From: an uncultured bacterium | GTDB taxonomy: Bacteria > Omnitrophota > Omnitrophia > Omnitrophales > Abzuiibacteriaceae | Reading direction: 5' to 3' | Assembly: GCA_964387845.1 (NCBI GenBank) | Contig: CAYLXA010000004.1 | Coordinates: 128,001-192,000, forward strand | Length of the DNA: 64,000 bases | Shown: positions 43,467 through 57,840 of the stretch, piece by piece | Numbering within the stretch: the first letter of the stretch is position 1 | Layout: each line of letters opens with the position of its first letter | Notes under the pieces: generated by a model | What the model saw: only the letters and a program-made list of their open reading frames with translations | The model's database searches: none | What the model was told of the DNA's origin: nothing | Position numbers and translations under genes: made by a program

Positions 43467-44136
43467 TTAAAACTTTTGGAATCGAGATATCGGCAATTTT
43501 GATTTTTCCGGCATGCGCAGGGCCTTCATTGACATACAAACCCGGCTTGAGGGCTGCCAGCGTAACCGTTGTGTGCGCGCGGATGCATTTTCCCATCACA
43601 TTACCGGTGTCGGCATGAAGGCCGGAAGGTAGATCAATGGATAAGACGCGTTTTTTTGCTTTATTCACAAGATCAACCAACGAAATATAAGGCTCTTCCA
43701 GATTTCTGCTCAACCCCACACCAAAAAGCGCATCAATAATGAGCTTGGAAGATTTTAAGTCTTTCATAAAATTTTTCATCAAATCCGCATCAAATAATTT
43801 GAACGGAATACCCATCGCCGTCATCATTTGATAATTGGCGACCGTATCCGGCTTAAACCGCTCCGGCCTTCCGATGATCCAGATGTTGACCGAAACCCCG
43901 GCATTGGTCAAGTGGCGTGCAGCGGCAAAGCCATCACCGCCATTGTTGCCGGAGCCGCACAAGATCAGCACAGAGCCTTTCTTGCTCATTATTTTTTTCG
44001 CCTCCTCAGCAACGGAACGCCCCGCATTTTCCATTAACAAAAGCGTCGGAATTTTAAATTGCGCGGAGGTTATTTGGTCCAATTTCATGATTGTGCTTGC
44101 CGAAAGCGCAGCCGGCTTGGATTTGCGTTTCATCAA
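43438..44136 (-). CDS. NAD(P)H-hydrate epimerase (YjeF N-terminal domain)
   Basis: A YjeF_N signature (LCGSGNNGGDG). 232 aa, overlapping the lpdA start. Confidence 0.75.
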   Translation of the reverse strand: MMKRKSKPAALSASTIMKLDQITSAQFKIPTLLLMENAGRSVAEEAKKIMSKKGSVLILCGSGNNGGDGFAAARHLTNAGVSVNIWIIGRPERFKPDTVANYQMMTAMGIPFKLFDADLMKNFMKDLKSSKLIIDALFGVGLSRNLEEPYISLVDLVNKAKKRVLSIDLPSGLHADTGNVMGKCIRAHTTVTLAALKPGLYVNEGPAHAGKIKIADISIPKVLIEKALHGKI

Positions 44137-45509
44137 GCAGCCGCAATGAGTTCGCCGATCAAAGTTTTATTCCGGACGGATCTGATTTGGATGTGCTGCC
44201 GTGTGCCGGCCAGCTCTGATGCGCCGTTAAAAACCACGTGGCGCTCGTGCTGGGTCTGGCCAATCATCTGGAGTTCGTCTTTTCGGCTGATGTGACTGAC
44301 CAGTACGCTTTCTCGGGACCCGATCAGCTGCTCGTAATGCTTTTTCGTGATCTCATCCTGAATTGCCAGTAATTCGACATTTCGCTTATTTTTAATATCT
44401 TTCGGCACGTCATCTCTCAATTTATAAGCCGGGGTTCCGGGGCGCGGTGAATATTGAAAAATAAAAGCGCCGTCAAACTCGATTTCACGCACTGCGCGTT
44501 TGGTGGCTTCAAAATCTTCTTCCGTTTCACCGCAAAAGCCGACAATAATGTCGGTTGTGAGTGAAATATCGGGAACAAGTTCGCGAAAGCGGTCGACTTT
44601 GGCTTTAAATTCCGCGTACCGGTGAAGCCGTTTCATTCGTTTTAAAATTGCGTCCGAACCCGATTGCAGGGGAAGGTGAAAGCGTCTAGAAACTTTTTTG
44701 CAGTCGCGGATGGCTTGAAACAGTTCTTCGTGCGCATCTTCCGGATGCGACGTTGTGAATGAAATCAATTCGATTCCTTCAATATCATTCAGCATGCGGA
44801 GAAGTTCGGGAAAAGCCGGACTGTTCGGCAAATCCTTGCCGTATGAATTCACGTTTTGTCCCAGGAGCGTAATTTGTTTATAGCCTTGTTCGGCAAGCCG
44901 GACCGCTTCTCTATAAACCTCCCGAGCTGGCATCGATACTTCAGGCCCGCGCGTTGTTGGGACTATGCAGTAAGTGCAAACTTTGTTGCATCCTGTCATG
45001 ATCGGAAGCCAGGCATTGATTCCATCGCCATATTTGGTGAGCTCCGAATATTCAATCCCCAGACCTTCTTTTTTGATGCGCGCGGTTTGTTGGCGGGTTT
45101 TTCGGACAGTTTCCACGATTTCCGGAAGCTCTTTAATATTCCGAGTTCCGCAGAGAAAATCAAGATGAGGAAATTTTTTAAATAACTTTTCTTTATGTTC
45201 TTCCGCCATGCAGCCCATGAGGCCGACGATCAGATCGGGTTTTTGTTCGGCTTTAAAATCGCGGAGCTCATAGAGATGGCCATAAACGCGGGTTTCCGCA
45301 TGTTCGCGAACCGAGCAGGTATTTAATATGAAGACATCCGAATCTTGATAGGGGTTGGCAGTTTCTTTAATGATCTGAAAGCCGGCATTCTCAAGCGTGC
45401 CCAAGGCGACGTCAGAATCATAAAAGTTCATCTGACATCCGAAGGTCTTAATAAACACGACTGGTTTTTTATCAGTAGATGGCCGTGTTTCTTGCTTTTC
45501 CTGTTCCAA
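44133..45509 (-). CDS. miaB: tRNA-2-methylthio-N6-dimethylallyladenosine synthase
   Basis: An MTTase N-terminal cluster (FGCQMN), a radical-SAM CxxxCxxC (CTYC) and a TRAM domain. It uses an apparent TTG start at 45507-45509 with a strong SD (aaggagg) 5 nt upstream, and that start lies inside the recombinase ORF. Confidence 0.85.
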   Translation of the reverse strand: MEQEKQETRPSTDKKPVVFIKTFGCQMNFYDSDVALGTLENAGFQIIKETANPYQDSDVFILNTCSVREHAETRVYGHLYELRDFKAEQKPDLIVGLMGCMAEEHKEKLFKKFPHLDFLCGTRNIKELPEIVETVRKTRQQTARIKKEGLGIEYSELTKYGDGINAWLPIMTGCNKVCTYCIVPTTRGPEVSMPAREVYREAVRLAEQGYKQITLLGQNVNSYGKDLPNSPAFPELLRMLNDIEGIELISFTTSHPEDAHEELFQAIRDCKKVSRRFHLPLQSGSDAILKRMKRLHRYAEFKAKVDRFRELVPDISLTTDIIVGFCGETEEDFEATKRAVREIEFDGAFIFQYSPRPGTPAYKLRDDVPKDIKNKRNVELLAIQDEITKKHYEQLIGSRESVLVSHISRKDELQMIGQTQHERHVVFNGASELAGTRQHIQIRSVRNKTLIGELIAAA

Positions 45510-47149
45510 GTTTCCTCCTTTCTGCCGGTTTTCTCGTTTGCTCTTCGGTTGGCTAACGCATTTTGATACATGGAGCGAAAAGGTTCATAAAGTTCAAACT
45601 TTTCGATTGATCGATTTTCCACTGGAAGCCTTTTAAAAATGAGCATTAAGAATTCTTTTCGGCTGGCCGGATGTAGATTTTCTTTTACAGATTGCGTAGA
45701 TTTTACGATTTCTTGCGCTTTTTTGACATATTCTTTGGACTTTTCTTTTTCGACTAGCCGGAGTTCCATGCGTTCGACCTTAATGCGAAGTTCACCCTCC
45801 TCATTGCGCAGTTTTTGCATTTTTTGCTTGAAGATGCCGCGATTAATGGTTCCTTCCAAATAAACATCCGTGAGGTCGCTTTGTTTTTGAAGGTATGCTT
45901 GCAAATCTTTTCGCATTGCTTCAAGTTCGTACGTTGCTTCACCAGTCGCTCTATTTCGATATTGGTCTGCTACAAGATTCCGAAGCCGTTCCGTAGTAAC
46001 TTCCTTAGCCGAAAAAAGGACATCCAGAACTTCAAAAACCTGTGATTCCAATATCTCTGACCGCACGTCACCGTTGTGGCATTTGATATTGTAAAGGGCT
46101 CTGCCAGAACAGCGGTAATAAGGTCTCTTTTCGCCGGTTCTGTGATTTTTAACATTGGAAATGCCATTGTAGCGGTTTCCGCACTTGGCGCAGGTGATTA
46201 CACCGGATAGCGGATAGTCGCGGACGCGTCGACGCACAAATCGTCCTTTTCGATTTTGGTCTAAGAGTGCTTGAACTTGATAAAAAATTTCTTCAGAAAC
46301 AATCGCCCAATGATTTCCAGTGGCTTCGATGATTTTGGACGGGTCATTCTTGACATAGCGATAACCATGAAGCGTTTTTTGTTTTCGGTCGTAATGGTGA
46401 GCATTCCAAACTAGTTTTCCAATGTAAATCTTATTTCGAAGCATCTTCCGAACGAGAGAACTATTGAACAAACCGCCTGATCGAGTTTTAATTTCACGTT
46501 TGTAAAGTTCACCGCCAATTTTCTGTGTGGAAAGGCCTGAAAGATACTTCTCGAAGATTTCTTTGACGAGTTTTGCTTCTTCTTCAACGATTTCAAGACG
46601 TTTTGTCGTTTTATCGTAATGGTAACCGTAAGGTGCATAACGGGCGCCTTGCCAATGTCCTTCTTGCACGCCGCGGACCATTCCTGGGAACACGCGTTCA
46701 ATAATCCGGTTTCGCTCAAATTCGGCAAAACTTCCAAGCTGTTGAAGCATGAGTTTGCCGGAGCTTGAGGTAGTATCATAGGGCTCTGTTGCGGATTTAA
46801 ATTCAATATCAAGATTTTCGAGTTCATCCAAGAGGTTCAAAAGGTCTTTCAGACGGCGGCTAAAACGGTCTAGTTTATAAACTAAAACTAAATCAAACTT
46901 CCTTGCTCTCGCGTCTTCCAAAAGTTGATTGAGAGCAGGGCGGTCAAGTGAATAACCGCTATAACCATCGTCTTCGTAAATTTTATTCTTGTCGTCCAGA
47001 AAATGAATTTGCCAATCTTGCTTCTTAGAAAATTCGATAAGAGAATCTCGCTGGATATCCAGAGAATAGCCTTCCCGCGCCTGATCTTCTGTGCTCACGC
47101 GCGTGTAAAGGGCTACTTGGATTTGTTTTTTATCGCTTGAATTGTTCAT
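45428..47149 (-). CDS. large serine recombinase (serine integrase)
   Basis: An N-terminal resolvase catalytic domain (YTRVSTEDQ, with the nucleophile Ser), a recombinase domain, a Cys-rich zinc-ribbon region (CAKCG...YRCSGR...CHN) and a coiled-coil C-terminal region. 573 aa. Confidence 0.9.
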   Translation of the reverse strand: MNNSSDKKQIQVALYTRVSTEDQAREGYSLDIQRDSLIEFSKKQDWQIHFLDDKNKIYEDDGYSGYSLDRPALNQLLEDARARKFDLVLVYKLDRFSRRLKDLLNLLDELENLDIEFKSATEPYDTTSSSGKLMLQQLGSFAEFERNRIIERVFPGMVRGVQEGHWQGARYAPYGYHYDKTTKRLEIVEEEAKLVKEIFEKYLSGLSTQKIGGELYKREIKTRSGGLFNSSLVRKMLRNKIYIGKLVWNAHHYDRKQKTLHGYRYVKNDPSKIIEATGNHWAIVSEEIFYQVQALLDQNRKGRFVRRRVRDYPLSGVITCAKCGNRYNGISNVKNHRTGEKRPYYRCSGRALYNIKCHNGDVRSEILESQVFEVLDVLFSAKEVTTERLRNLVADQYRNRATGEATYELEAMRKDLQAYLQKQSDLTDVYLEGTINRGIFKQKMQKLRNEEGELRIKVERMELRLVEKEKSKEYVKKAQEIVKSTQSVKENLHPASRKEFLMLIFKRLPVENRSIEKFELYEPFRSMYQNALANRRANEKTGRKEETWNRKSKKHGHLLIKNQSCLLRPSDVR

Positions 47150-47425
47150 TTATCTCCGTCTTGAATGAATGGGCAATATTATACATAAAATTATCAGAAT
47201 TACCTGCAATAATTACATGGGTCTTCTTGCGTTTTTGTTATCTTGTTCGATCTCTTTTTGTTTTAATGTTTGTTGCAAACGAGCGCGATCTGCTTGAAGC
47301 AAAATCGTAAAAAATCGGCGCAGCCGGTATTTTTGTTCGTTATCTTCGACGGGTGTTTTGTTTTGAATTTGTATTTGACCTAACTTATTTTTCAGATAGA
47401 GGACCTCCTTTCTGGTTTATTAATT

Positions 47426-48379
47426 TTAATCATTGGAATCGTCATCCCCCTGACCGTCAATTGGGCTCATATTGGCATCGACTTCTTCTTCGCCCCCGCT
47501 GGAATATGGGTCTAGAAAATCGTCGTGATCTTCGTCGGAGTTATGGGGCTTCGGAATCGAAATATACGGCTTGCTCGGTTTCCACTTATTTTTGTCCTTA
47601 GGAACAAAGAAATCCTCAAACCACGCAGGATCAATTTCCTTCAAATCTGTCTTGGTGGATTCTCTAATCAATTGTTTCACGGGAAGCCCGTCTGAACCTG
47701 AAAAGAAAACTGCATCTTTTCTATCCTTCATCAAAGCCTCAAACGTGATGAAGAAAAAACGGTTTGTGGGGTCATGCTTCTTTCTCACTCTTGAAATAAA
47801 CGACTCCGAGCGGCAGATATAAAGCACCGCGTCAAACTTATCGCTGTCATCGTATTGGCTAAAAATACTCTTGTATCTGGCCAGTCTTTTTTCTGTCCGT
47901 TCGTATTCAATGGCATAGAGAGCCTTTTGAGTCATCAAAAACGCATCCGGCACAGAGCCTCTGGGCCTGAATGAGCGGATCACACGTTCTGGAAACCAAG
48001 TCTCAACCCCCAATTCGTAAAAGAGAACCCGGATGTCGGTTAACGCCTTGTCATGCCCAAAATTAGCAAATGCTCTATCCCTTGATATCTTGAGCGCGTA
48101 TTTTGAACCCTGAGACCTGAGCAGTAAAAACGATTTCTGGGTTGGAATATAGATATCCCTTGCTTCGGTGTAGACCTTTTTCTTGGCAATGTATCCCGCT
48201 TTCATCAATTTCAAGATTCTTCTATAACAAGCTCTCTTAGGATTGCAATCTTCAAAGAACACCCTCCCAATCTGATCCAACGTCATAAACTTCATGTGGA
48301 CTAACCACATCAAGAGCTCACTATCTCTCGAATTTAACTGCATGATAAAAATACTCCTTTCTAAAAGAATTACTTTCAC
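47426..48379 (-). CDS. replication-relaxation family protein (plasmid Rep-like)
   Basis: A 317-aa protein with an N-terminal winged-helix-like region and an acidic C-terminal tail. The family assignment is by resemblance, at moderate confidence. It has an apparent GTG start, it is co-oriented with the recombinase, and the repeat-rich non-coding DNA is on its upstream side. Confidence 0.5.
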   Translation of the reverse strand: MKVILLERSIFIMQLNSRDSELLMWLVHMKFMTLDQIGRVFFEDCNPKRACYRRILKLMKAGYIAKKKVYTEARDIYIPTQKSFLLLRSQGSKYALKISRDRAFANFGHDKALTDIRVLFYELGVETWFPERVIRSFRPRGSVPDAFLMTQKALYAIEYERTEKRLARYKSIFSQYDDSDKFDAVLYICRSESFISRVRKKHDPTNRFFFITFEALMKDRKDAVFFSGSDGLPVKQLIRESTKTDLKEIDPAWFEDFFVPKDKNKWKPSKPYISIPKPHNSDEDHDDFLDPYSSGGEEEVDANMSPIDGQGDDDSND

Positions 48380-48399
48380 TGACGAGCACTAGATACAAA

Positions 48400-48472
48400 C
48401 TTTTCCCGACTACTCAATCTCACAAACTCAATCCAAAATAAACCATGGAAGAGAGTGAGTAGTCGGGAAAAG
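48400..48472. repeat. 17-bp perfect inverted repeat (cttttcccgactactca / tgagtagtcgggaaaag) with a 39-bp spacer, just upstream of the rep-relaxation gene
   Basis: Read directly from the sequence. Confidence 0.8.
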
Positions 48473-48584
48473 AAAATGCGCCGAATTGCGAGGCAGTGAA
48501 AGCGCTTACAAAAAATTGCTTAGGGAAACTCAATTTCCCAACCACTTTCCCCAACCAAAAGTGCACCAAAGAACAAAAACACCT

Positions 48585-49030
48585 CTCATTGATGTTGTGC
48601 AAAAACAGGCATTTCGTAACAAAGAAATCCAAAATTCCAGATAAAAAATATTTTTCATGCCCCTTCACCTAAAAAACCAACAAGTCCCCCCATATATAGG
48701 GGGCCAAAAATGGGGGTCTCGCAGAGATTTGCGAAAATATTTTCAATTCCACCTAAAAATAGTTTGAATCCCAACCCTCCGTTCTCAATCACCTAAAACC
48801 CTAAAAGTCCTCCCATTGATGTTGTGCAAAAACAGCACTTTCGACGACAAGAAAATTCAATTAACAGATGGAAAAATATTTTTTATACATTTTTTCTGAG
48901 ACTTTTTAGGTAATCACTTAAAAAAACAACAAGTGCTCCCTATATAAAGGTGCAAAAACAGGGTGTTTTGGTAGAAAATCACGAAAATAGTTTGATCTTC
49001 ACCTAAAATTTTAATTTTAGTCTTTTTTTC
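48585..49030. repeat. two imperfect tandem repeats of about 226 bp containing reiterated cacctaaaa motifs and a 17-bp perfect palindrome (cccccatatataggggg, 48686-48702)
   Basis: The units begin at about 48585 and 48811 (attgatgttgtgcaaaaacag at 48588 and 48814). The cacctaaaa motifs start at about 48666, 48749, 48789 and 48999. Confidence 0.7.
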
Positions 49031-49282
49031 CTGTTTTACATTTGGATCGTAATTTCTCACATAGTGTGTGGCTTAGGCCTATTTCCTCTTGAGTCTTCAC
49101 GATTTTATTGTGAAAGCTCGTGGTTTCGATACCACCAGCTCATACCACCATGTTTAATTTGCTCATTGACCTGGAAAATGATTGAAGATTGAGAGTCGTT
49201 TAACCGCAATCTGGACACCGATCAAGCTTTTGACCTATCACATGGTCAGTCACTTCGGTGCTGGACAGGTTACTAATTTTTT

Positions 49283-49471
49283 TCAACGTTTTTTGCGTTT
49301 CTTTCTCGGCTCTCTCACTGCGGCTGATTCGATCTTCTGAAGGAGATCTTCATTTTCCTGTTCAACTTGTTTCAGCGCCTCACGTAGCCTGAGCATTTCC
49401 TCGATAAGATCATCTTTGGATTCTTCTTGAAGAAAAATTCTATCCCCGTGAAATGGGTTGGCGGCCGTCAT
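49283..49471 (-). CDS. small hypothetical protein (62 aa; coiled-coil with basic C-terminal tail RKKRKKR)
   Basis: An ORF with no convincing SD. Its position at the distal end of the element suggests a small DNA-binding or partition-like protein, but this is weak. Confidence 0.3.
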   Translation of the reverse strand: MTAANPFHGDRIFLQEESKDDLIEEMLRLREALKQVEQENEDLLQKIESAAVREPRKKRKKR

Positions 49472-49573
49472 CGCAGATGTAGGGTCTTAGAAAAAGAATT
49501 AAGATGATTTGTTAGGATTCGCTAAAGGATTGCGTGCGATAAAAACCTGTTGCTTTTTATGATCAGGAGTGTT

Positions 49574-49594
49574 ATATTTCGTATAACGAAATAT
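49574..49594 (+). promoter_or_regulatory. putative MarR operator: 9-bp inverted repeat atatttcgt-ata-acgaaatat followed by ttcgtataat (-10-like) upstream of marR
   Basis: The palindrome overlaps a TATAAT-like box 20-30 nt upstream of the MarR start. Confidence 0.4.
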
Positions 49595-49622
49595 TCGTAT
49601 AATAAAATATATGGGGAGATTT

Positions 49623-50102
49623 ATGAAATTGTTTACCCTGGAAGCTTTTGGAGACCGGATGATTGAGCTGTTCCCGCAGCTGATGCGGGAGATCTCGCAG
49701 TATGAGACTAATTATCTGACCGAAGGAGTGATTACGGTTCCGCAGGTCTGGGTCTTGGATTTTCTGAAAGATGGAAAGTCTGCCCAGATGAACGAACTCG
49801 CCGCGTACATGAAACTTAAGTTTTCGTCCGCGACAGGCCTTGTTGACCGCATGGTCAAGCACCAGCTTGTAAAGCGCGTCCGGAGCGAGACCGACCGGCG
49901 GGTCGTGCTAATATCCATCACTTCCAAAGGTAAGAAAATTTTGCAGGAAATATACAAGCAAAAGCGCAAGGGAATTATGCGATTATTCGGCCGGTTAGGT
50001 TCCGAAGACCGCATGCAGTATATGGAACTTATCGAAAAGCTTGTAAAAGATCTTTCCTCCACCCCTTCTCAGGAAAACCGTTATGCCGACCGTCATCATT
50101 GA
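49623..50102 (+). CDS. MarR family transcriptional regulator
   Basis: A winged-helix MarR fold pattern. The start is at the second ATG (MKLF), which has a ggggaga SD. Confidence 0.8.
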   Translation: MKLFTLEAFGDRMIELFPQLMREISQYETNYLTEGVITVPQVWVLDFLKDGKSAQMNELAAYMKLKFSSATGLVDRMVKHQLVKRVRSETDRRVVLISITSKGKKILQEIYKQKRKGIMRLFGRLGSEDRMQYMELIEKLVKDLSSTPSQENRYADRHH

Positions 50103-50307
50103 AGGCCCCCGATTAAGTTTGGAGGGTAAAAAGGAACTGGTTCAGAAACTGGCCCCGCTCGCGGCTCATGTTTATGACTGGAAAGTTGAAGATGTGGTCG
50201 TGATCATCCGAGAGAATGCGGATGAAAATGTGGCTCGCGGAGGCGTTTTGTTATCGGAGCGGAAAGATCGTGGAATGCAGGCTGTCCATAAAAAGGGGCC
50301 TCAATGA
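50083..50307 (+). CDS. tautomerase superfamily protein (4-oxalocrotonate tautomerase-like, Pro-1)
   Basis: It begins MPTVIIEG and is about 74 aa. It is translationally coupled, overlapping marR by 20 nt and tolC by 4 nt. Confidence 0.6.
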   Translation: MPTVIIEGPRLSLEGKKELVQKLAPLAAHVYDWKVEDVVVIIRENADENVARGGVLLSERKDRGMQAVHKKGPQ

Positions 50308-51740
50308 AAGACTGTCAGAAAAACTATATTGGAGCAGGCTTTTTGAAAGGACAAAAGCGTTTCTTGGGAGCTTTTTTGTGCTTGAGCGTGGCGGGTTTTT
50401 TTATGCACTGTGAAGCGTTTGCCCAAAACGGCTCCTTATCTGCACCGGGCCCCGGGGATTTGAAGGCCGCTCAGAACGTCGATAGTCAAACCCCCTCCTT
50501 GACGCTTGAAGAGTCGTTTCAGCTTGCTTTCAAAAATCATGAAGAGGTTCAAATCGCAATTTTTAGTGAGAAAGAGCAGGGGCTCTTGCCCTGGCGCGCT
50601 TTTTCCGCAATTCTCCCTACCGTGACCGGAAGCGCGGGCGTTACCTATCCAAAAGAGCAAATTGCGTTTGCACAATCTGTTATTGTTGCAGACCCCCTGA
50701 AGGAGGCTGACATTACCGTCAGGCAGCCGTTATTTAACGGACAGACGCTCCCGGCCTACATACGCGCAAGAAACCTTTCGGAAGCCTCATCCGAAAGCAA
50801 ATATTTCGAAATTCGCCGCGTTTTGTTCAATGTGGCACAGGCCTATTTTTCGCTTCTGCAAAATCAAAAGCTGGTTGATGTTGCCGAGGAATCTCTGAGG
50901 CTGGCACAGGAGCAGCTTAGGATTTTGTCTGAACGTTACGAGGCGGGACAAGCACCCAAAAATGATTTTCTGCGCGCCCAGGTTGAAGTGAGCCGTGCCG
51001 AGAGAACTTTAACGGAAAGCCGTAATAACCGGGAACTTGCGGGCAGTACGCTGGCCAGCTTCATTGGTATGCCGGTTCCGGAAATCAAAGAGGCCCGTTT
51101 GGTTGAACCTGAATCTGACCCAACCGTCAGACTCGAAGAAAATGATGAGCTTCAAAAATATATCGAGATTGCCGGAAATCATCGCAATGACCTCAGGAGC
51201 TTAAAAGAACAAGTAGATGCCAAAAAATGGGAAGTCAGGCAGAAATGGGCTGCGTTTCTTCCCAATGCCGACTTGATATTTGAACAATCCTGGCTCGAAC
51301 CCGAAAGTTTTTCGCGGCAGAACAATTTCTGGACAGCCGGATTTCAGTTTACATTTCCTTTTTTTGAAAAAGGAGAGCGAGCGCTAAATGTGAGTGAACA
51401 AAGATACGAACTCAAACAGCTTCGGCTGCGACTCGAAAGGCTTCGAAAAGACATTGCGCTTCAGGTCGAAGAAGCCTGGCGGGCGGCACAGACCACCAAA
51501 GTCAATCTGAACGCGGTTCTCAAAGAAAAAGAGCTTTCCCAGGAAAATTACGATGTGATTCTCAGCCGCTATGAATCCGGACAATCCTCCAGTCTTGATG
51601 TGATCGATGCTTTTGCGGAGCTCACCAATGCAAAAACCATCGCCGTAACGGAACAATATGCTTATCAGCTTTCTCTTCTTAACCTTTTGAAGCAGGCCGG
51701 ACTGTTCGGGCAATCTTATATAGAGCCGCAAAGAAAATGA
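50304..51740 (+). CDS. TolC-family outer membrane efflux protein
   Basis: A signal peptide followed by two OEP repeats. 478 aa. Confidence 0.85.
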   Translation: MKDCQKNYIGAGFLKGQKRFLGAFLCLSVAGFFMHCEAFAQNGSLSAPGPGDLKAAQNVDSQTPSLTLEESFQLAFKNHEEVQIAIFSEKEQGLLPWRAFSAILPTVTGSAGVTYPKEQIAFAQSVIVADPLKEADITVRQPLFNGQTLPAYIRARNLSEASSESKYFEIRRVLFNVAQAYFSLLQNQKLVDVAEESLRLAQEQLRILSERYEAGQAPKNDFLRAQVEVSRAERTLTESRNNRELAGSTLASFIGMPVPEIKEARLVEPESDPTVRLEENDELQKYIEIAGNHRNDLRSLKEQVDAKKWEVRQKWAAFLPNADLIFEQSWLEPESFSRQNNFWTAGFQFTFPFFEKGERALNVSEQRYELKQLRLRLERLRKDIALQVEEAWRAAQTTKVNLNAVLKEKELSQENYDVILSRYESGQSSSLDVIDAFAELTNAKTIAVTEQYAYQLSLLNLLKQAGLFGQSYIEPQRK

Positions 51741-52657
51741 GGAGTCTTTTTGTGAAAAGAAAGTTAAAAAATCAAACAAATGTTTCCATTTTGATTTTTC
51801 CATTGCTATGTTTAGTTTTGGCTTCTGGATGCGGTAAACACAATGGGAAAATGCCGCCAGGCGTGCCTGTCGATGCGATTAAAGTGCAACCGGAAAAGTT
51901 AGAACATATTTTAAAAGTTGTCGGCAATATCAAGGCGCAGGATGAAGCAACTTTGTATTCTAAGGTAGCCGGAAAGCTGATCAAATATGTGGTGAAAGAA
52001 GGGCAGGCGGTAAAAAAAGACGACACCGTAGCTTTGCTCGACCGTGATGAAGTCGGATTCAAATACCAGGAGGCTCCGGTAAAAACGACGCTTGATGGGG
52101 TCGTGGGACGTACTTATTTGGATGCGGGTGCGGATATCCAGTTGAGTACGCCTGTAGCGCTTGTTGTGGATATGCGTCAAGTGCGTATTTTGATACAGGT
52201 GCCCGAACAAGATTTGCCCGATGTGAAGGAAGACCAAACCGCCCATGTTTATGCGGATGCTTTTCCAAAAGATATATTCGAAGGAAAAGTCATTAAAGTG
52301 AGCCCAATTGTGGATCTTCAAACCCGAACAGCGCCCGTTGAAATCGAAGTTCCTAACCCCGAATACCGGTTGAAGCCCGGAATGTTTGCACGTGTTGAAC
52401 TCGTCACGCGAGTTTTCGAGAATGCCGTGATGATTCCTGAGGCGGCCATTGCTTACGAGAGCGGCAAGCCCTCTGTTTTCGTTGTCAAAGACGGTAAAGC
52501 ACAAAGGCGGAGTATTGAGACCGGCATGCGGGAAATTGGAAGAGTTCAAATTACCAAAGGGCTCGAGGGCGGCGAAGTTGTGGTGACAGCCGGCCATCTG
52601 AAGATCCGCGACGGCTCCGAAGTTGCGATCGCTCAGGAACAAACCAACTCTGGGTAA
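51737..52657 (+). CDS. efflux RND transporter periplasmic adaptor subunit
   Basis: A lipobox (LASGCG) and an HlyD/MFP biotinyl-lipoyl plus beta-barrel pattern. Confidence 0.85.
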   Translation: MRSLFVKRKLKNQTNVSILIFPLLCLVLASGCGKHNGKMPPGVPVDAIKVQPEKLEHILKVVGNIKAQDEATLYSKVAGKLIKYVVKEGQAVKKDDTVALLDRDEVGFKYQEAPVKTTLDGVVGRTYLDAGADIQLSTPVALVVDMRQVRILIQVPEQDLPDVKEDQTAHVYADAFPKDIFEGKVIKVSPIVDLQTRTAPVEIEVPNPEYRLKPGMFARVELVTRVFENAVMIPEAAIAYESGKPSVFVVKDGKAQRRSIETGMREIGRVQITKGLEGGEVVVTAGHLKIRDGSEVAIAQEQTNSG

Positions 52658-52707
52658 TTTAAACTTTATTTCTATAGACTACGCCATAGATAAATTAAGG
52701 GAAATAC

Positions 52708-55700
52708 ATGCTATCGAAATTCTTTCTTGACCGGCCGGTTTTTGCGTGGGTGATTGCCATCATTTTGATGGTCTTGGGCTTACTGGCTATTTACCAGCTT
52801 CCGATATCGCAATATCCCCCCATTGCCCCGCCTTCCATTGCCATCACGAGTTTTTATCCGGGCGCTTCAGCCGAAACCGTAGAAAATACCATAACCCAGA
52901 TCATCGAACAAAAAATGACGGGCTTCGAAGAGATGTTGTACATGTCTGCCACAAGCGATTCGGCTGGCGCCTCACGCATAGAACTCACGTTCAAGCCAGG
53001 AACAGATCCGGATTTGGCCTGGGCCAAGGTGCAGAATAAACTCCAGCTGGCTATGGCAAGCCTTCCTGAAGTGGTGCAGCGTTCGGGGGTGACGGTAAGC
53101 AAATCGACGAGGAATTATCTCATCATTATCGGCCTTGTCTCGGAAGATGGCAGTATGGATGACCATGCGCTGCGTGACTATGCTCAATCAAATCTTGAAA
53201 AGGTGCTGGCGCGCGTGCCGGGAGTCGGAGAGGTTGAGACTTTCGGGACCCAGTATGCGATGCGCATCTGGATCAATCCCGATAAGCTGATAGAATACGG
53301 TCTTACGGTTCAAGACGTTGTCCATGCTTTGGATACCTATAACGTAGAAGTGTCGGCCGGTCAGTTCGGCGGACTTCCAGCTGTTGAAGGCCAGCGGCTT
53401 AACGTCTCCATCATTATTCAAAATTTGCTGCAGACCCCCGAGGAATTTGCCTCCATTCCGGTCCGAACCAATCCGGACGGATCGATTATTCGCATCAGGG
53501 ATGTCGGCGGAACTGAACTCGGCACCGAGTTCTACGATATCGTCAATGTATATAACGGCAAACCGGCTGCCGCTATGGCGGTAAGGCAGGCCCCTGGCGC
53601 AAACGCGCTCGATACAGCAGAGGCAGTCAAGGCGAAACTCGAAGAGATGAGCCGCTATTTTCCGCATGGCATGAAGGTGGTTTATCCTTATGACACAACT
53701 CCCTTTGTTGAGGTGGCGATTCATGAGGTTGTCAAAACTCTCTTCGAGGCCATCTTGCTGGTGTTCCTTGTTATGTATCTGTTTATGGGAAATATTCGGG
53801 CAACGTTAATTCCCACGATTGCCGTGCCGGTCGTCCTTTTGGGCACTTTCGCTGTACTGGGACTCTTCGGGTTTTCGATCAACATGCTGACGATGTTCGC
53901 CATGGTCTTGGCAATCGGGCTCCTTGTAGATGATGCGATCGTAGTGGTTGAAAACGTAGAACGCCTGATGTCGGAGGAAGGTCTTTCGCCACGGGATGCC
54001 ACCGCCAAATCAATGGAGCAGATCACAAGCGCTCTGATCGGTATCGGCTTGGTGCTTTCCGCCGTTTTTGGTCCCATGGCTTTTTTCCCGGGTTCAACGG
54101 GAGTCATTTACCGCCAGTTCTCCGTGACGATTATTGCCTCGATGATGCTCTCGGTGGTAGTCGCCTTGATTCTGACACCGGTTCTCTGCGCAGCGCTGCT
54201 GAGACCGGTGCCAAAAGGGCATGAACCGGCAGAAAATGCGATTTGGTTCCTACGTCCCTTTTTTATGAAATTCGACCGCTTTTTCTTCCGGATTCGTGAA
54301 CGCTACATCGCGATTGTAGACCACTCCTTGGCGCATAAACTGCGTTATATCATACTGTACACAGGCATCATAGGCGTGATCGCATTCCTCTTTTTCCGTC
54401 TTCCCACCGGCTATTTACCGGACGAGGACCAGGGAATCCTGCTTGCGCAGATTGTAATGCCGACCGGCTCGACTTTGGAACAAACGAAAGCGGTTACGGA
54501 CAGGGTCCAACAACATTTTGAGCAAAATGAAAAAGATGCCGTGGAATCTTCTATGGCAATAGTGGGTAACGGTTTTTCGGGCAGAGCGCAGAATAACGCG
54601 ATGGTCTTTGTCAAACTCAAGGACTGGAAAGAGCGCGGGCGCAAAGAATTATCGGCAAAGGCCGTGGCGGGAAGAGCAATGGGAGCATTTTCAGCGATTC
54701 GCGAGGCCATTGCTTTTGTTTTTCCTCCGCCTGCCGTCCTTGAACTTGGCTTTGGCCGAGGCTTTGACTTCCAGTTAATCGACAGAGGCGGATTGGGACA
54801 TGAGGCTTTGATGAATGCCCGGAATCAACTGCTCGGCATGGCAGCTCAGGATAAGCGGCTTACGAAAGTGCGCCCGAACGGTATGGAGGATGTCCCTCAA
54901 TTTCGAATCGATGTGGATTGGGAAAAAGCGGGCATGTTGGGAATTCCGATCGCTTCGATCCATAGCACACTCTCGGCAGCTTTTGGCGGGGCCTATGTCA
55001 ATGATTTCATCCAAGGCGGGCGCGTGAAACGCGTGTACATTCAAGCGGATACTCCTTACCGCATGCTGCCGGATGATCTCGAAAAAATTTATGTCCGCAA
55101 CATTTCAGGGCAGATGGTTCCCTTTGCATCTTTTGCATCGACGCGCTGGGCCTCGGGCGCTCCCCGCCTCGAACGCTTTAACGGATTTTCATCCATGAAC
55201 ATCTGGGGAGAGCCTGCGCCAGGCAAAAGTTCCGGTGAGGCGATGCAGGCCATGGAAGAACTTTCCGGAAAACTGCCCAAAGGATTCGGCTATGATTGGG
55301 CAGGTCTGTCGTATCAGGAAAGGATGGCCACGGCTCAGGGACCAATTCTTTACGCGTTCTCCATTCTCGTGATCTTCCTTTGCGTAGCGGCCTTATATGA
55401 GAGTTGGAGTATTCCGTTCGTGAATCTCCTGATGCTGCCGCTCGGAGTATTCGGCGCTTTATTTGCGACTTCCCTGAGAGGCCTGACTAACGACGTTTAC
55501 TTCCAGATTGGTTTCCTTACAACCATGGGACTTTCTACAAAAAACGCCATTCTTATCATTCAGTTCATCAAAGAGCAGATGCAGCAGGGGCTCGGCCTGG
55601 TGGAGGCGACTCTCGCTGCTGTAAAGATCCGCTTCCGTCCGGTTATCATGACATCTCTCGCGTTTTTCTTTGGGACGCTGCCGCTCGCTCTGGCTTCCGG

Positions 55701-55872
55701 GGCAGGCGCGGGCGCGATGAACGCCATCGGCACAGCCGTGACAGGGGGTATGATCTCGGCAACCTTTATTGATCTGGTGTTTATTCCATTATTTTTCGTT
55801 TTGATATCCCGTTTCTTTGGGCGCAAAACAAAAAATACTCAAACTACCGGCGAAGGAACAATTAAGTCGTGA
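52708..55872 (+). CDS. efflux RND transporter permease (AcrB/HAE1 family)
   Basis: A 1054-aa protein with twelve TM segments and two large periplasmic loops, and AcrB family motifs. Confidence 0.9.
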   Translation: MLSKFFLDRPVFAWVIAIILMVLGLLAIYQLPISQYPPIAPPSIAITSFYPGASAETVENTITQIIEQKMTGFEEMLYMSATSDSAGASRIELTFKPGTDPDLAWAKVQNKLQLAMASLPEVVQRSGVTVSKSTRNYLIIIGLVSEDGSMDDHALRDYAQSNLEKVLARVPGVGEVETFGTQYAMRIWINPDKLIEYGLTVQDVVHALDTYNVEVSAGQFGGLPAVEGQRLNVSIIIQNLLQTPEEFASIPVRTNPDGSIIRIRDVGGTELGTEFYDIVNVYNGKPAAAMAVRQAPGANALDTAEAVKAKLEEMSRYFPHGMKVVYPYDTTPFVEVAIHEVVKTLFEAILLVFLVMYLFMGNIRATLIPTIAVPVVLLGTFAVLGLFGFSINMLTMFAMVLAIGLLVDDAIVVVENVERLMSEEGLSPRDATAKSMEQITSALIGIGLVLSAVFGPMAFFPGSTGVIYRQFSVTIIASMMLSVVVALILTPVLCAALLRPVPKGHEPAENAIWFLRPFFMKFDRFFFRIRERYIAIVDHSLAHKLRYIILYTGIIGVIAFLFFRLPTGYLPDEDQGILLAQIVMPTGSTLEQTKAVTDRVQQHFEQNEKDAVESSMAIVGNGFSGRAQNNAMVFVKLKDWKERGRKELSAKAVAGRAMGAFSAIREAIAFVFPPPAVLELGFGRGFDFQLIDRGGLGHEALMNARNQLLGMAAQDKRLTKVRPNGMEDVPQFRIDVDWEKAGMLGIPIASIHSTLSAAFGGAYVNDFIQGGRVKRVYIQADTPYRMLPDDLEKIYVRNISGQMVPFASFASTRWASGAPRLERFNGFSSMNIWGEPAPGKSSGEAMQAMEELSGKLPKGFGYDWAGLSYQERMATAQGPILYAFSILVIFLCVAALYESWSIPFVNLLMLPLGVFGALFATSLRGLTNDVYFQIGFLTTMGLSTKNAILIIQFIKEQMQQGLGLVEATLAAVKIRFRPVIMTSLAFFFGTLPLALASGAGAGAMNAIGTAVTGGMISATFIDLVFIPLFFVLISRFFGRKTKNTQTTGEGTIKS

Positions 55873-56351
55873 AAGCCAGATATGCCAATCAGCATGATTT
55901 TCAAGCCTTTGAAGAAAACCTGACGTTCTTCATGCGTTATTTGTTGGCGCACGGGTTGAAAATACTGGCAAGCTACAAGATCAACCTTGCCCAGTATTTT
56001 ATTCTCTTCGAATTGAGTCATGACACGGCATTGCCCATGTTCTTCTTTGCTGAACATTACCCTCTTTCTAAACCTTCGTTCACAAATAATATCGACAGGC
56101 TTGTTTCACGAGGACTCGTGACACGTATGCGAGGGACCGAGGATAGACGGACGATTTTAGTTTCCATTACGACGAGTGGAAAAAAGCTTATGGGCAACCT
56201 TCAAAGAACGCGGCTCAAATTCTTGCAAAGCTACTTTAATCGTCTGCCCCCGGCCAAGCAGCATGCTTTGACCGAACTTTTAGCGGCTCTCCGGCCGGTT
56301 CATGAAGAATCATGCGCAGGAAAAAGTATTAAAAATATTCTGAAAGAATAA
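55869..56351 (+). CDS. MarR family transcriptional regulator
   Basis: A MarR wHTH pattern. It overlaps the RND gene stop by 4 nt. Confidence 0.75.
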   Translation: MKARYANQHDFQAFEENLTFFMRYLLAHGLKILASYKINLAQYFILFELSHDTALPMFFFAEHYPLSKPSFTNNIDRLVSRGLVTRMRGTEDRRTILVSITTSGKKLMGNLQRTRLKFLQSYFNRLPPAKQHALTELLAALRPVHEESCAGKSIKNILKE

Positions 56352-56356
56352 AACTT

Positions 56357-56587
56357 ATGATTACATGGATCGGTCTTTGCGCTGGAGAAATTTGGAATTG
56401 TTTGGACATGCATGGTGGTAAAGCAGAATTTCATATTCTGTTTTCGGAAATCAATGCGCCACAGGAAACCATTTTGATGGCAATGGGATGGCTTGCCAGA
56501 GAAGGCTACATCATCATTGACGGATCTTTTCCTTCAGGCGTGATCAAACTTAAAGAGCATCCACCCATGCCACTTGCAGAAAAATGA
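56357..56587 (+). CDS. winged helix-turn-helix domain protein (DUF2582-like)
   Basis: A 76-aa protein carrying the MAMGWLAREGYI motif characteristic of DUF2582 wHTH proteins. Confidence 0.55.
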   Translation: MITWIGLCAGEIWNCLDMHGGKAEFHILFSEINAPQETILMAMGWLAREGYIIIDGSFPSGVIKLKEHPPMPLAEK

Positions 56588-56642
56588 TGCCCAATATCAT
56601 GAGAGACTGGCAAATCGTTTGAGGCTGTGAAAGGGGAAGATT

Positions 56643-57032
56643 ATGGGACAAACAAAAAATCAATATATTCCCGGCGTTTGCAATATCGGCACGGCGGAAA
56701 TTAAGAAACGCAAACAAGCGGGATGGATAGGGCTTGCCGCAACTATTGTCCTATGGGGACTCCTTATTTACCTTAATGTTGCACCAGCCTGGCGATTACT
56801 TCTCTTTTTCCCGGCGATGATGTCGGCAATAGGATTTCTCCAGGCCTACATGCATTTCTGCGCCTATTACGGTTTCACTGCTCTTTTTAATTATGGCGAT
56901 TTCGGCAAAAAAGATACTATCCAGCAAGCTGAATTTCGCGTCCAAGATAGACGCAAGGCGTGGCAAATTGTCATTTACTCTGTACTTATCGGTATAGCGG
57001 TCGCTCTTCTGTCATACATGTTTCAGTTATAG
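56643..57032 (+). CDS. hypothetical membrane protein (about three TM segments, two Cys)
   Basis: An SD (aaggggaag) upstream and hydrophobic segments in the sequence. Confidence 0.5.
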   Translation: MGQTKNQYIPGVCNIGTAEIKKRKQAGWIGLAATIVLWGLLIYLNVAPAWRLLLFFPAMMSAIGFLQAYMHFCAYYGFTALFNYGDFGKKDTIQQAEFRVQDRRKAWQIVIYSVLIGIAVALLSYMFQL

Positions 57033-57218
57033 ACCTCTATTGAGCGAAACCAAAAAAAGAGCAAGGAGGGCAGCAACCGCATGAAAATACTCGTTCTTAT
57101 CTTCCGCGCGCTGAAAGAATTTTCTAAAGCGCGGCATAAGGAGGACGAGCAGGTGTCCATCCGGATCTTCGCTGTTCCATGCGAGCAGCTACTCTAAAAT
57201 CAAGGAGGTAAAGAAACC

Positions 57219-57611
57219 ATGCGATACGTAGTGTTATTGGGGAGAATATTCTATTCGTCCATCTTCGTCATGGCCAACCTGTTCCATTTCTCCGGCCAAG
57301 CCATCACGCACGCGGCCGACGAAGGGGTTCCCATGGCGGGGGTCTTGGTTCCCCTGTCGGGGATTATCGGCTTGGCGGGAGGATTCAGCATCCTGCTGGG
57401 CTACAAGGCCAAGTGGGGCGCCTGGCTCCTGGTGCTGTTTCTCGTGCCCGTCACCCTCATGATGCACAAGTTCTGGGCGGTTGCCGACCCGCAGGCCGCC
57501 ATGATGCAACAGGTTATGTTCATGAAGAATGTCTCCATGCTCGGAGCGGCTCTTTTGATCAGCCATTTCGGGGCCGGACCTCTCAGCCTGGACGCCCGCA
57601 AGACAGGTTGA
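57219..57611 (+). CDS. DoxX family membrane protein
   Basis: A DoxX pattern across four TM segments and a strong SD (aaggagg). The gene is conspicuously GC-rich (about 60%) with GC3-rich codons, unlike its neighbours. Confidence 0.75.
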   Translation: MRYVVLLGRIFYSSIFVMANLFHFSGQAITHAADEGVPMAGVLVPLSGIIGLAGGFSILLGYKAKWGAWLLVLFLVPVTLMMHKFWAVADPQAAMMQQVMFMKNVSMLGAALLISHFGAGPLSLDARKTG

Positions 57612-57840
57612 GTTAAAATCCGTAGGCCGCCTTTATTATCTCAACCGCCTGTCGGGTATAGGAAAGCCAAGGGTCAGCCGAACGTCTTAATATGTAGTTT
57701 TAGCGGCTTTGTAGACATGACGGAGATTATACCAAAAGGCGGCCGAGAATAGAAGCCTCTCAACATATTGAAATACAATGACTTAGGAAAAGATTGATTT
57801 TGAGTTTAATCTGTGGTAAATCTGTGTCCCTCGGTGATAT

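Follow-up and report, generated by a model that had tools for sequence, protein, structure and literature searches.

The window, a stretch of 64,000 nucleotides (nt) from contig CAYLXA010000004.1 of an uncultured Omnitrophota bacterium, carries on its minus strand a gene for a large serine recombinase (LSR), or integrase, followed by miaB. According to the listing of open reading frames (ORFs), the two genes share 82 nt (45428-45509) in different frames. An earlier sequence-only reading had pointed out this same-strand overlap, the TTG start of miaB and a Shine-Dalgarno (SD) sequence inside the recombinase gene, and all three were confirmed by the ORF listing, Pfam and the sequence itself. The analysis presented here indicates that the overlap is very probably the attR site of a 12.2-kb integrative element, inserted by the LSR into the host miaB through a 2-bp TG exchange that rebuilt the gene. 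The genes and signals concerned are listed below; miaB is called hybrid, and its element-borne 5' end surrogate.

45428..47149, minus strand: large serine recombinase (integrase) gene, 573 amino acids (aa) in the integrated state
44133..45509, minus strand: hybrid miaB, 458 aa, TTG start
45514..45520, minus strand: SD sequence AAGGAGG of the surrogate miaB start, within the recombinase ORF

The recombinase contains a resolvase-type catalytic domain (PF00239, Resolvase, matched over 1-145/145, E 6.7e-39) and the C-terminal domains PF07508 (Recombinase, 189-299) and PF13408 (Zn_ribbon_recom, 313-375). Its nearest solved relatives are the TP901-1 integrase, with a homologous catalytic domain, and SprA of SPbeta, both weak matches in PDB (~72 bits for SprA, recombinase residues 62-456), while the best annotated plasmid homologues are 28-35% identical. 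Judged by these domains, the predicted protein is a large serine integrase, distant from the characterised ones. The product of the downstream gene, with UPF0004, Radical_SAM and TRAM domains (Pfam), is a MiaB-type methylthiotransferase. Homologues of the two proteins assign the window to Omnitrophota.

The AAGGAGG sequence (45520-45514) is spaced 4 nt from the TTG of miaB. The sole other in-frame start ahead of the essential Cys is GTG at 45458, which would still leave an overlap of 31 nt. The recombinase stop TGA is made from the miaB codons CAG-ATG-AAC of the conserved G-C-Q-M-N motif.

The crossover point was located by comparing two homologous loci, one with miaB downstream of the recombinase (L002) and one without it (L082). 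They are near-identical through ..CCAGTCGTGTTTATTAGGACCTTCGGATG and unrelated beyond, the homology stopping exactly after ..TTCGGATG. The core dinucleotide of the window is accordingly the TG at 45437-45436, which begins the codon for the first conserved Cys of MiaB (motif TFGCQMN) and precedes the recombinase stop by 6 nt. The junction is composed as follows.

45412..45461, minus strand: attR, the recombinase-proximal junction (P arm, core TG, B' arm)
45461-45438, minus strand: attR P arm, GTCGTGTTTATTAAGACCTTCGGA
45437-45436, minus strand: attR core TG
45435-45412, minus strand: attR B' arm, TCAGATGAACTTTTATGATTCTGA

The sequence-only reading had proposed that an integrase at the end of an element reads over an att junction, with an attL or attR no more than about 100 bp away; the core TG does lie within the interval it had flagged. 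Its view of the overlap as an integrase C-terminus running into host DNA was right as far as the crossing itself goes: the last three sense codons and stop of the recombinase, GAT|G TC AGA TGA, span the junction. The extent was different, as 72 of the 82 overlap nt (45509-45438) are element DNA and only the last 10, the core TG and TCAGATGA through the recombinase stop, are shared or host-derived. Codons 1-24 of hybrid miaB (MEQEKQETRPSTDKKPVVFIKTFG) thus come from the element, and the gene is host-derived from Cys25 (TGT, 45437-45435) on.

Seven further copies away from miaB and the site reconstructed for the window have in common the sequence ACCTTCGGn-TG-nCCGnTGG, with inverted half-sites around TG. 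Inverted repeats about a 2-bp crossover had been expected here, and the P and P' arms of the reconstructed window attP indeed match in 14/24 dyad positions, compared with 15/24 in L167, where the distal GTCGTnT motif is included. The attP of a serine integrase, with a non-palindromic dinucleotide at its centre, is expected to look like this. By sequence, the attachment sites are of the short type: a 2-bp core, imperfect inverted half-sites, junctions that are B/P hybrids and no long direct repeats.

A pattern scan of the whole window gave one further site, at 57685-57675 on the minus strand, which reads ..ggTATAATctccgtcATG TCT ACA AAG CCG CTA AAA CTA CAT ATT AAG ACG TTC GGC TG|A CCC TTG GCT TTC CTA TAC CCG AC... 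To the right of this distal TG, the reverse complement matches the P arm in 14/24 positions. Of the 7716 TG sites in the window, no other reaches a dyad score of 14/24 or more to the P arm and also has a left arm that agrees with the P arm in 15/24 positions. The distal junction and the element it delimits have the following parts.

57651..57700, minus strand: attL, the distal junction (B arm, core TG, P' arm)
57700-57677, minus strand: attL B arm, AAACTACATATTAAGACGTTCGGC
57676-57675, minus strand: attL core TG
57674-57651, minus strand: attL P' arm, ACCCTTGGCTTTCCTATACCCGAC
57674..57717, minus strand: displaced native miaB 5' end, with ATG at 57717 and 14 codons (MSTKPLKLHIKTFG), then a TGA created by the junction
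45438..57674, no strand assigned: integrated element, ~12.24 kb between the two core dinucleotides

The B arm, TG and the B' arm together read MSTKPLKLHIKTFGCQMNFYD, and the unoccupied miaB of five other loci (L004-L007 and L093) is collinear with this sequence; the reconstructed junction sequences are AAGACGTTCGGCTGTCAGATGAAC for attB and AAGACCTTCGGATGACCCTTGGCTTTCC for attP. A TATAAT sequence was found 9 nt upstream of the displaced native ATG, at about 57730. The suspicion of the sequence-only reading that the insertion had remodelled the 5' end of miaB was borne out, the native 5' end and its upstream region now lying 12.2 kb away at 57.7 kb. The miaB N-termini and upstream regions of relatives without the recombinase there (L004-L007, L093) differ from those of the window; identity through the overlap, which had been named as the sign that no junction falls here, was not seen. 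An early candidate for the distal junction at ~49495-49450 (..AAGACCCTACATCTGCGATGACGGCC..) encodes no MiaB N-terminus, has no P'-arm symmetry and was rejected.

These sites suggest the following course of events. The LSR would exchange 2 bp, the TG with which the first conserved Cys codon of miaB begins (T-F-G-C-Q-M-N), and thereby insert the element, using an attP that would lie wholly within the 3' end of its own ORF. The P arm would then have a triple role, serving as a recombinase half-site, as the C-terminal codons of the recombinase and, in the other frame, as the SD, the start and about 24 MiaB-like codons through T-F-G. Upon integration the host Cys codon would continue the reading frame of this surrogate 5' end, giving a full-length miaB again, and the native promoter region and first 14 miaB codons would remain at attL, 12.2 kb distant.

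The same exchange would alter the recombinase. Its free form, reconstructed from the P arm, TG and P' arm, has 591 aa and ends in DPWLSYTRQAVEIIKAAYGF (also written ..PSDDPWLSYTRQAVEIIKAAYGF). It resembles the homologue P0024, likewise of 591 aa, which ends in DRWLRYTRLGSDVLVISYGF (also written ..PSDDRWLRYTRLGSDVLVISYGF). As both arms are coding and attP is predicted to lie inside an ORF of the element, integration changes the product: the last 20 residues of the free form are swapped for V-R-stop (591 to 573 aa). The conserved tail residues RW..Y.R of the free form coincide with the motifs of the P' half-site, so a constraint at the DNA level may account for their conservation.

The arrangement was compared over 20 integrated loci, comprising Omnitrophota genome bins, metagenome contigs of unassigned origin and the window itself. 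The recombinase stop TGA lies within CAG-ATG-AAY of CQMN in all 20, with overlaps of 40-109 nt, and each locus has a surrogate miaB start codon (ATG, GTG or TTG) and N-terminus. In 20/20 loci the exchange point is the Cys codon of TFGCQMN, a single conserved insertion site in the 5' coding region of a housekeeping gene. The 5' end is replaced by substitute sequence in every case, and the native 14-codon remnant (57717-57674) was found in the window. Recombinases of the integrated loci are 65% (L002) and, in nearly all others, 44-46% identical to that of the window (45% in L001), and the MiaB proteins 33-57%. In the set L001-L003, genome loci found by means of miaB in which a homologous recombinase lies directly upstream of the gene, MiaB identity is ~54-55%; the recombinase overlaps miaB in L001 and L002, and the L003 contig carries only part of it.

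The recombinase tails repeat this pattern. Close homologues all end in ..SCLL(R/G)PS(D/A)(V/A)(R/K), the other-frame reading of the miaB codons P-V-V-F-I-K-T-F-G-C-Q-M-N, and the miaB-frame tail ..PS(D/A/V)(V/A)(R/K) ends 93 of the 115 full-length proteins among the best 120 recombinase homologues. In most close relatives the miaB SD GAAAGGAGG falls where the recombinase tail has the motif E-R-R. Between the window and L002, only 1/40 positions differs across the P-arm and surrogate stretch, though their MiaB proteins are 54% identical. We attribute the near-invariance of this ~30-bp stretch to the coincidence of the P-arm half-site with the surrogate miaB 5' coding sequence. Because the same arrangement recurs in 20 independent loci and in 93/115 homologue tails, the overlap is due neither to chance nor to sequencing error.

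Some copies lie on phage-like contigs. The IMG/VR contig L170 carries phage-like genes, including one for a small-terminase-like protein, and an intact, unintegrated attP. Since L170 and L172 carry the family recombinase, the integration module also appears to serve putative Omnitrophota phages. Both IMG/VR contigs have, in addition to this recombinase, a small-terminase-like gene and genes for large, possibly structural proteins (by eye); the attP region of L170 encodes ..KKPRVLLRTFG ahead of TG, and the L172 contig ends inside the recombinase gene.

A different origin would be a recombinase-miaB operon, inherited vertically and domesticated within an Omnitrophota clade, in which the overlap is ordinary translational coupling and no att junction exists. 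The conservation of the arrangement over many genomes and metagenome contigs fits this explanation, as does the fact that neither an excision product nor a same-species empty site was found. We nevertheless consider it very unlikely, because the related loci L004-L007 have miaB without the recombinase, copies are known from sites other than miaB and also from a phage-like contig, and the native miaB 5' end persists 12.2 kb upstream, fused to a P'-type arm. Furthermore, the genes upstream of the recombinase are wholly different between loci, with a type I restriction-modification system in L163, RND, MerR and MerC genes in L164 and an ATPase gene in L001. As the cargo varies in this way, the pattern fits a family of putative mobile elements with one integration module and one target rather than a vertically inherited operon.

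The element could also be smaller, namely a low-GC block of 3.9 kb between the 17-nt direct repeats GAACAGGAAAAGCAAGA (45506-45490) and GAACAGGAAAATGAAGA (49363-49347), with the junction at the miaB start codon, in GAACAGGAAAA. The repeats match in 15/17 positions at a spacing of 3857 nt, and the GC dip ends near 49.5 kb. This is extremely unlikely, as repeats of this kind are neither required nor generated by serine recombinases, whose exchange takes place at a 2-bp core. The repeat sequence is not conserved in the other loci. The L002/L082 identity runs ~70 nt past the equivalent point, to TG, and a canonical attL with the native miaB start exists at 57.7 kb; short two-copy repeat families are, moreover, often chance matches.

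In two loci the automatic gene calls (L163:11755 and L164:6579) start miaB at the Met of C-Q-M-N, which gives a 4-nt ATGA overlap and loses the first conserved Cys. Such starts are a systematic mis-annotation at these junctions. That the window overlap itself is an artefact, with a frameshift or assembly error lengthening the recombinase ORF or a true miaB start downstream as in these calls, is hardly credible, since a start at the CQMN Met would also remove the preceding beta-strand, no ATG lies between the TTG and the Cys codon, and the same frames are kept in the 20 loci and 93/115 proteins from independent assemblies.

Several results weigh against the integration of a 12.2-kb element as proposed above. 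Both junctions were recovered in the window only; in 20 other integrated loci no attL was found within the 8-10 kb of upstream flank, and it lies beyond the available sequence or is unrecognisable. In its GC content, the cargo half (49.6-57.6 kb) resembles the host. Promoter and terminator scans gave nothing above the shuffled expectation, and for the promoter this is unfavourable. No empty attB of the same species was found, a look-up by means of the flanking methyltransferase giving only the same arrangement, and a test of terminal overlaps recovered no closed circular contig; therefore, the mobility of the window copy is something that we only infer.

Finally, an apparently intact attP occurs in three chromosomal contexts (L093, L098 and L168) that the simple integration model does not explain. 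In L093:9481-18696 the recombinase has an intact attP (core TG 11115) and is accompanied by a Replic_Relax homologue; a gene of 1865 aa comes next. A native, uninterrupted miaB follows 6.2 kb downstream on the same strand, so that attP and attB coexist in cis without recombination; the target in this miaB reads ACT TTT GGG TG, not ACC TTC GGN TG. L168:10001-13216 belongs to a fully assembled chromosome, that of Ca. Velamenicoccus archaeovorus (CP019384, ~658-680 kb), and L098:10007-13294 to a metagenome contig; both have the recombinase with an attP-like symmetric site, downstream of which lie genes for a Na+/H+ exchanger, a response regulator and a histidine kinase. Their upstream genes differ, encoding Phage_rep_O and HTH_17 in L168 and a 709-aa protein in L098. 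A tandem array, an alternative target or insertion along a different route may explain these three loci. The tails of L098 and L168 may mark a second chromosomal target upstream of the Na+/H+ exchanger or a tandem arrangement, though their right arms have P'-like symmetry and the sites resemble an intact attP.

Between the recombinase and the distal junction, the integrated element of the window carries the following features.

47225..47410, minus strand: small conserved ORF directly upstream of the recombinase, motif ..YRLRRFFTILLQADRARL.., no canonical start codon
47426..48379, minus strand: Replic_Relax-like gene, 317 aa, Pfam score slightly under the family cut-off
48400..48962, no strand assigned: non-coding repeat region in the low-GC part of the element, within ~1.2 kb of low-GC non-coding DNA
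49611..57611, plus strand: cargo block
49611-50102, plus strand: MarR
50304-51740, plus strand: outer-membrane factor
51737-52657, plus strand: membrane-fusion protein
52708-55872, plus strand: RND pump
55869-56351, plus strand: second MarR
56357-56587, plus strand: DUF2582 winged helix-turn-helix protein
56643-57032, plus strand: 129-aa membrane protein
57219-57611, plus strand: DoxX/SURF4-like protein

The small ORF at 47225-47410 has no Pfam match and is conserved in L002, L081, L163, L164/L165 and L167; it is a candidate accessory or directionality factor, the latter being what a serine integrase requires for excision. In the distant loci L001 and L168 the ORF at this position encodes a helix-turn-helix of the HTH_17/MerR type (a weak Pfam match in L168, by eye in L001), which is the fold of many excisionases. 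The Replic_Relax-like protein has a homologue of 47% identity upstream of the recombinase in L093. The non-coding block next to it contains a 22-nt inverted repeat of 95% identity (48400-48421/48451-48472) and iteron-like direct repeats, namely an 80-nt pair (48576, 48803) and three copies of GTGCAAAAACAGG. The part of the block adjoining the Replic_Relax gene is conserved in L093 (7634-7781), and as a whole it looks like an origin of the plasmid type.

The GC content drops to 0.38-0.43 over 45.0-49.5 kb, and at the edge of this low-GC block lies an ORF for a lysine/glutamate-rich protein of 62 aa (MTAANPFHGDRIFLQEESKDDLIEEMLRLREALKQVEQENEDLLQKIESAAVREPRKKRKKR; 49283-49471, minus strand) with no Pfam match. 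In the cargo block, the outer-membrane factor, the membrane-fusion protein and the RND pump form a three-component RND efflux system. Directly upstream of the first MarR gene, a 16-nt tandem repeat (TTCGTATAACGAAATA/TTCGTATAATAAAATA, 49578-49609) is likely a MarR operator. An Rfam scan of 44.0-58.5 kb gave no RNA family, and no tRNA genes were found near the att sites.

With regard to expression, we infer that the transcript of miaB originates within the element and probably covers the recombinase gene as well, read-through from that gene being the simplest way; the scan predicted no minus-strand terminator between the two genes. The hybrid MiaB is presumably functional, and its surrogate N-terminus retains the beta-strand pattern V-x-I-K-T-F-G. 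The element may still be able to excise. A more speculative idea, which we regard as doubtful, is that the attP inside the ORF acts as a sensor of the integration state, the free 591-aa and integrated 573-aa isoforms differing in stability, activity or directionality. Were it true, integration-dependent immunity would have a counterpart among serine integrases. Transcription of the integrase gene would in that case be maintained because the host requires expression of miaB, to which the 3' end of the tail-less form is tied in both transcription and translation.

The analysis turned an odd overlap into a delimited putative mobile element, with attL, attR and the reconstructed attP and attB defined to the base, in a phylum, Omnitrophota, that is known mainly from metagenomes. 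It points to a large family of serine integrases with one conserved chromosomal target and varied cargo, including efflux, mercury-resistance, restriction-modification and phage-like modules. A stretch of ~30 bp that is a predicted protein-binding half-site and also codes in two frames is a compact example of overlapping constraints. For annotation, such junctions are places where automatic pipelines mis-start miaB. The predicted 50-bp att pair is also a candidate for a new orthogonal integrase system.

Among the known systems, dusA-specific genomic islands and prophages, which encode DAI integrases, likewise give a tRNA-modification gene a new 5' end that comes from the island, and leave a 5' remnant at the far junction (Farrugia et al. 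2015, PMC4482086). They use tyrosine recombinases, occur in Proteobacteria and target dusA, whereas the window element has a large serine recombinase with a 2-bp core, targets miaB and was found in Omnitrophota bins. Unlike in the dusA islands, the integrase ORF itself contains the substitute 5' end. SXT/R391 integrates in the 5' end of prfC, whose function is preserved because the element brings a 5' coding sequence and expression signals of its own; it is an integrative and conjugative element with a tyrosine recombinase, and its attP is not known to lie inside int. As the integrase of the window is a serine recombinase and not a tyrosine recombinase of the DAI or SXT Int family, the window element appears to work like the 5'-end-replacing islands of dusA and prfC but is no member of their families.

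The integrases TP901-1, SPbeta SprA, A118/LI, Bxb1 and phiC31 are similar to the window system in domain architecture, the ~50-bp dyad attP, the non-palindromic core dinucleotide and the choice of a protein-coding target. However, these phages disrupt their targets (comK, groEL1, spsM) or insert without rebuilding them, and their attP is not known to lie inside the int ORF. The open-access literature yielded no description of a serine integrase targeting miaB, nor of an attP inside a serine-integrase ORF. An attP inside an element ORF is found in archaeal integrases of the SSV type (PMC7253208). There the int gene is split in two, whereas in the window only the last 20 residues of the serine integrase are exchanged. 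In the integration-dependent immunity of mycobacteriophages, the recombination site lies inside the repressor gene and the integrase is a tyrosine integrase. The gene affected by integration is thus the repressor in those phages, whereas in the window it is the serine integrase itself.

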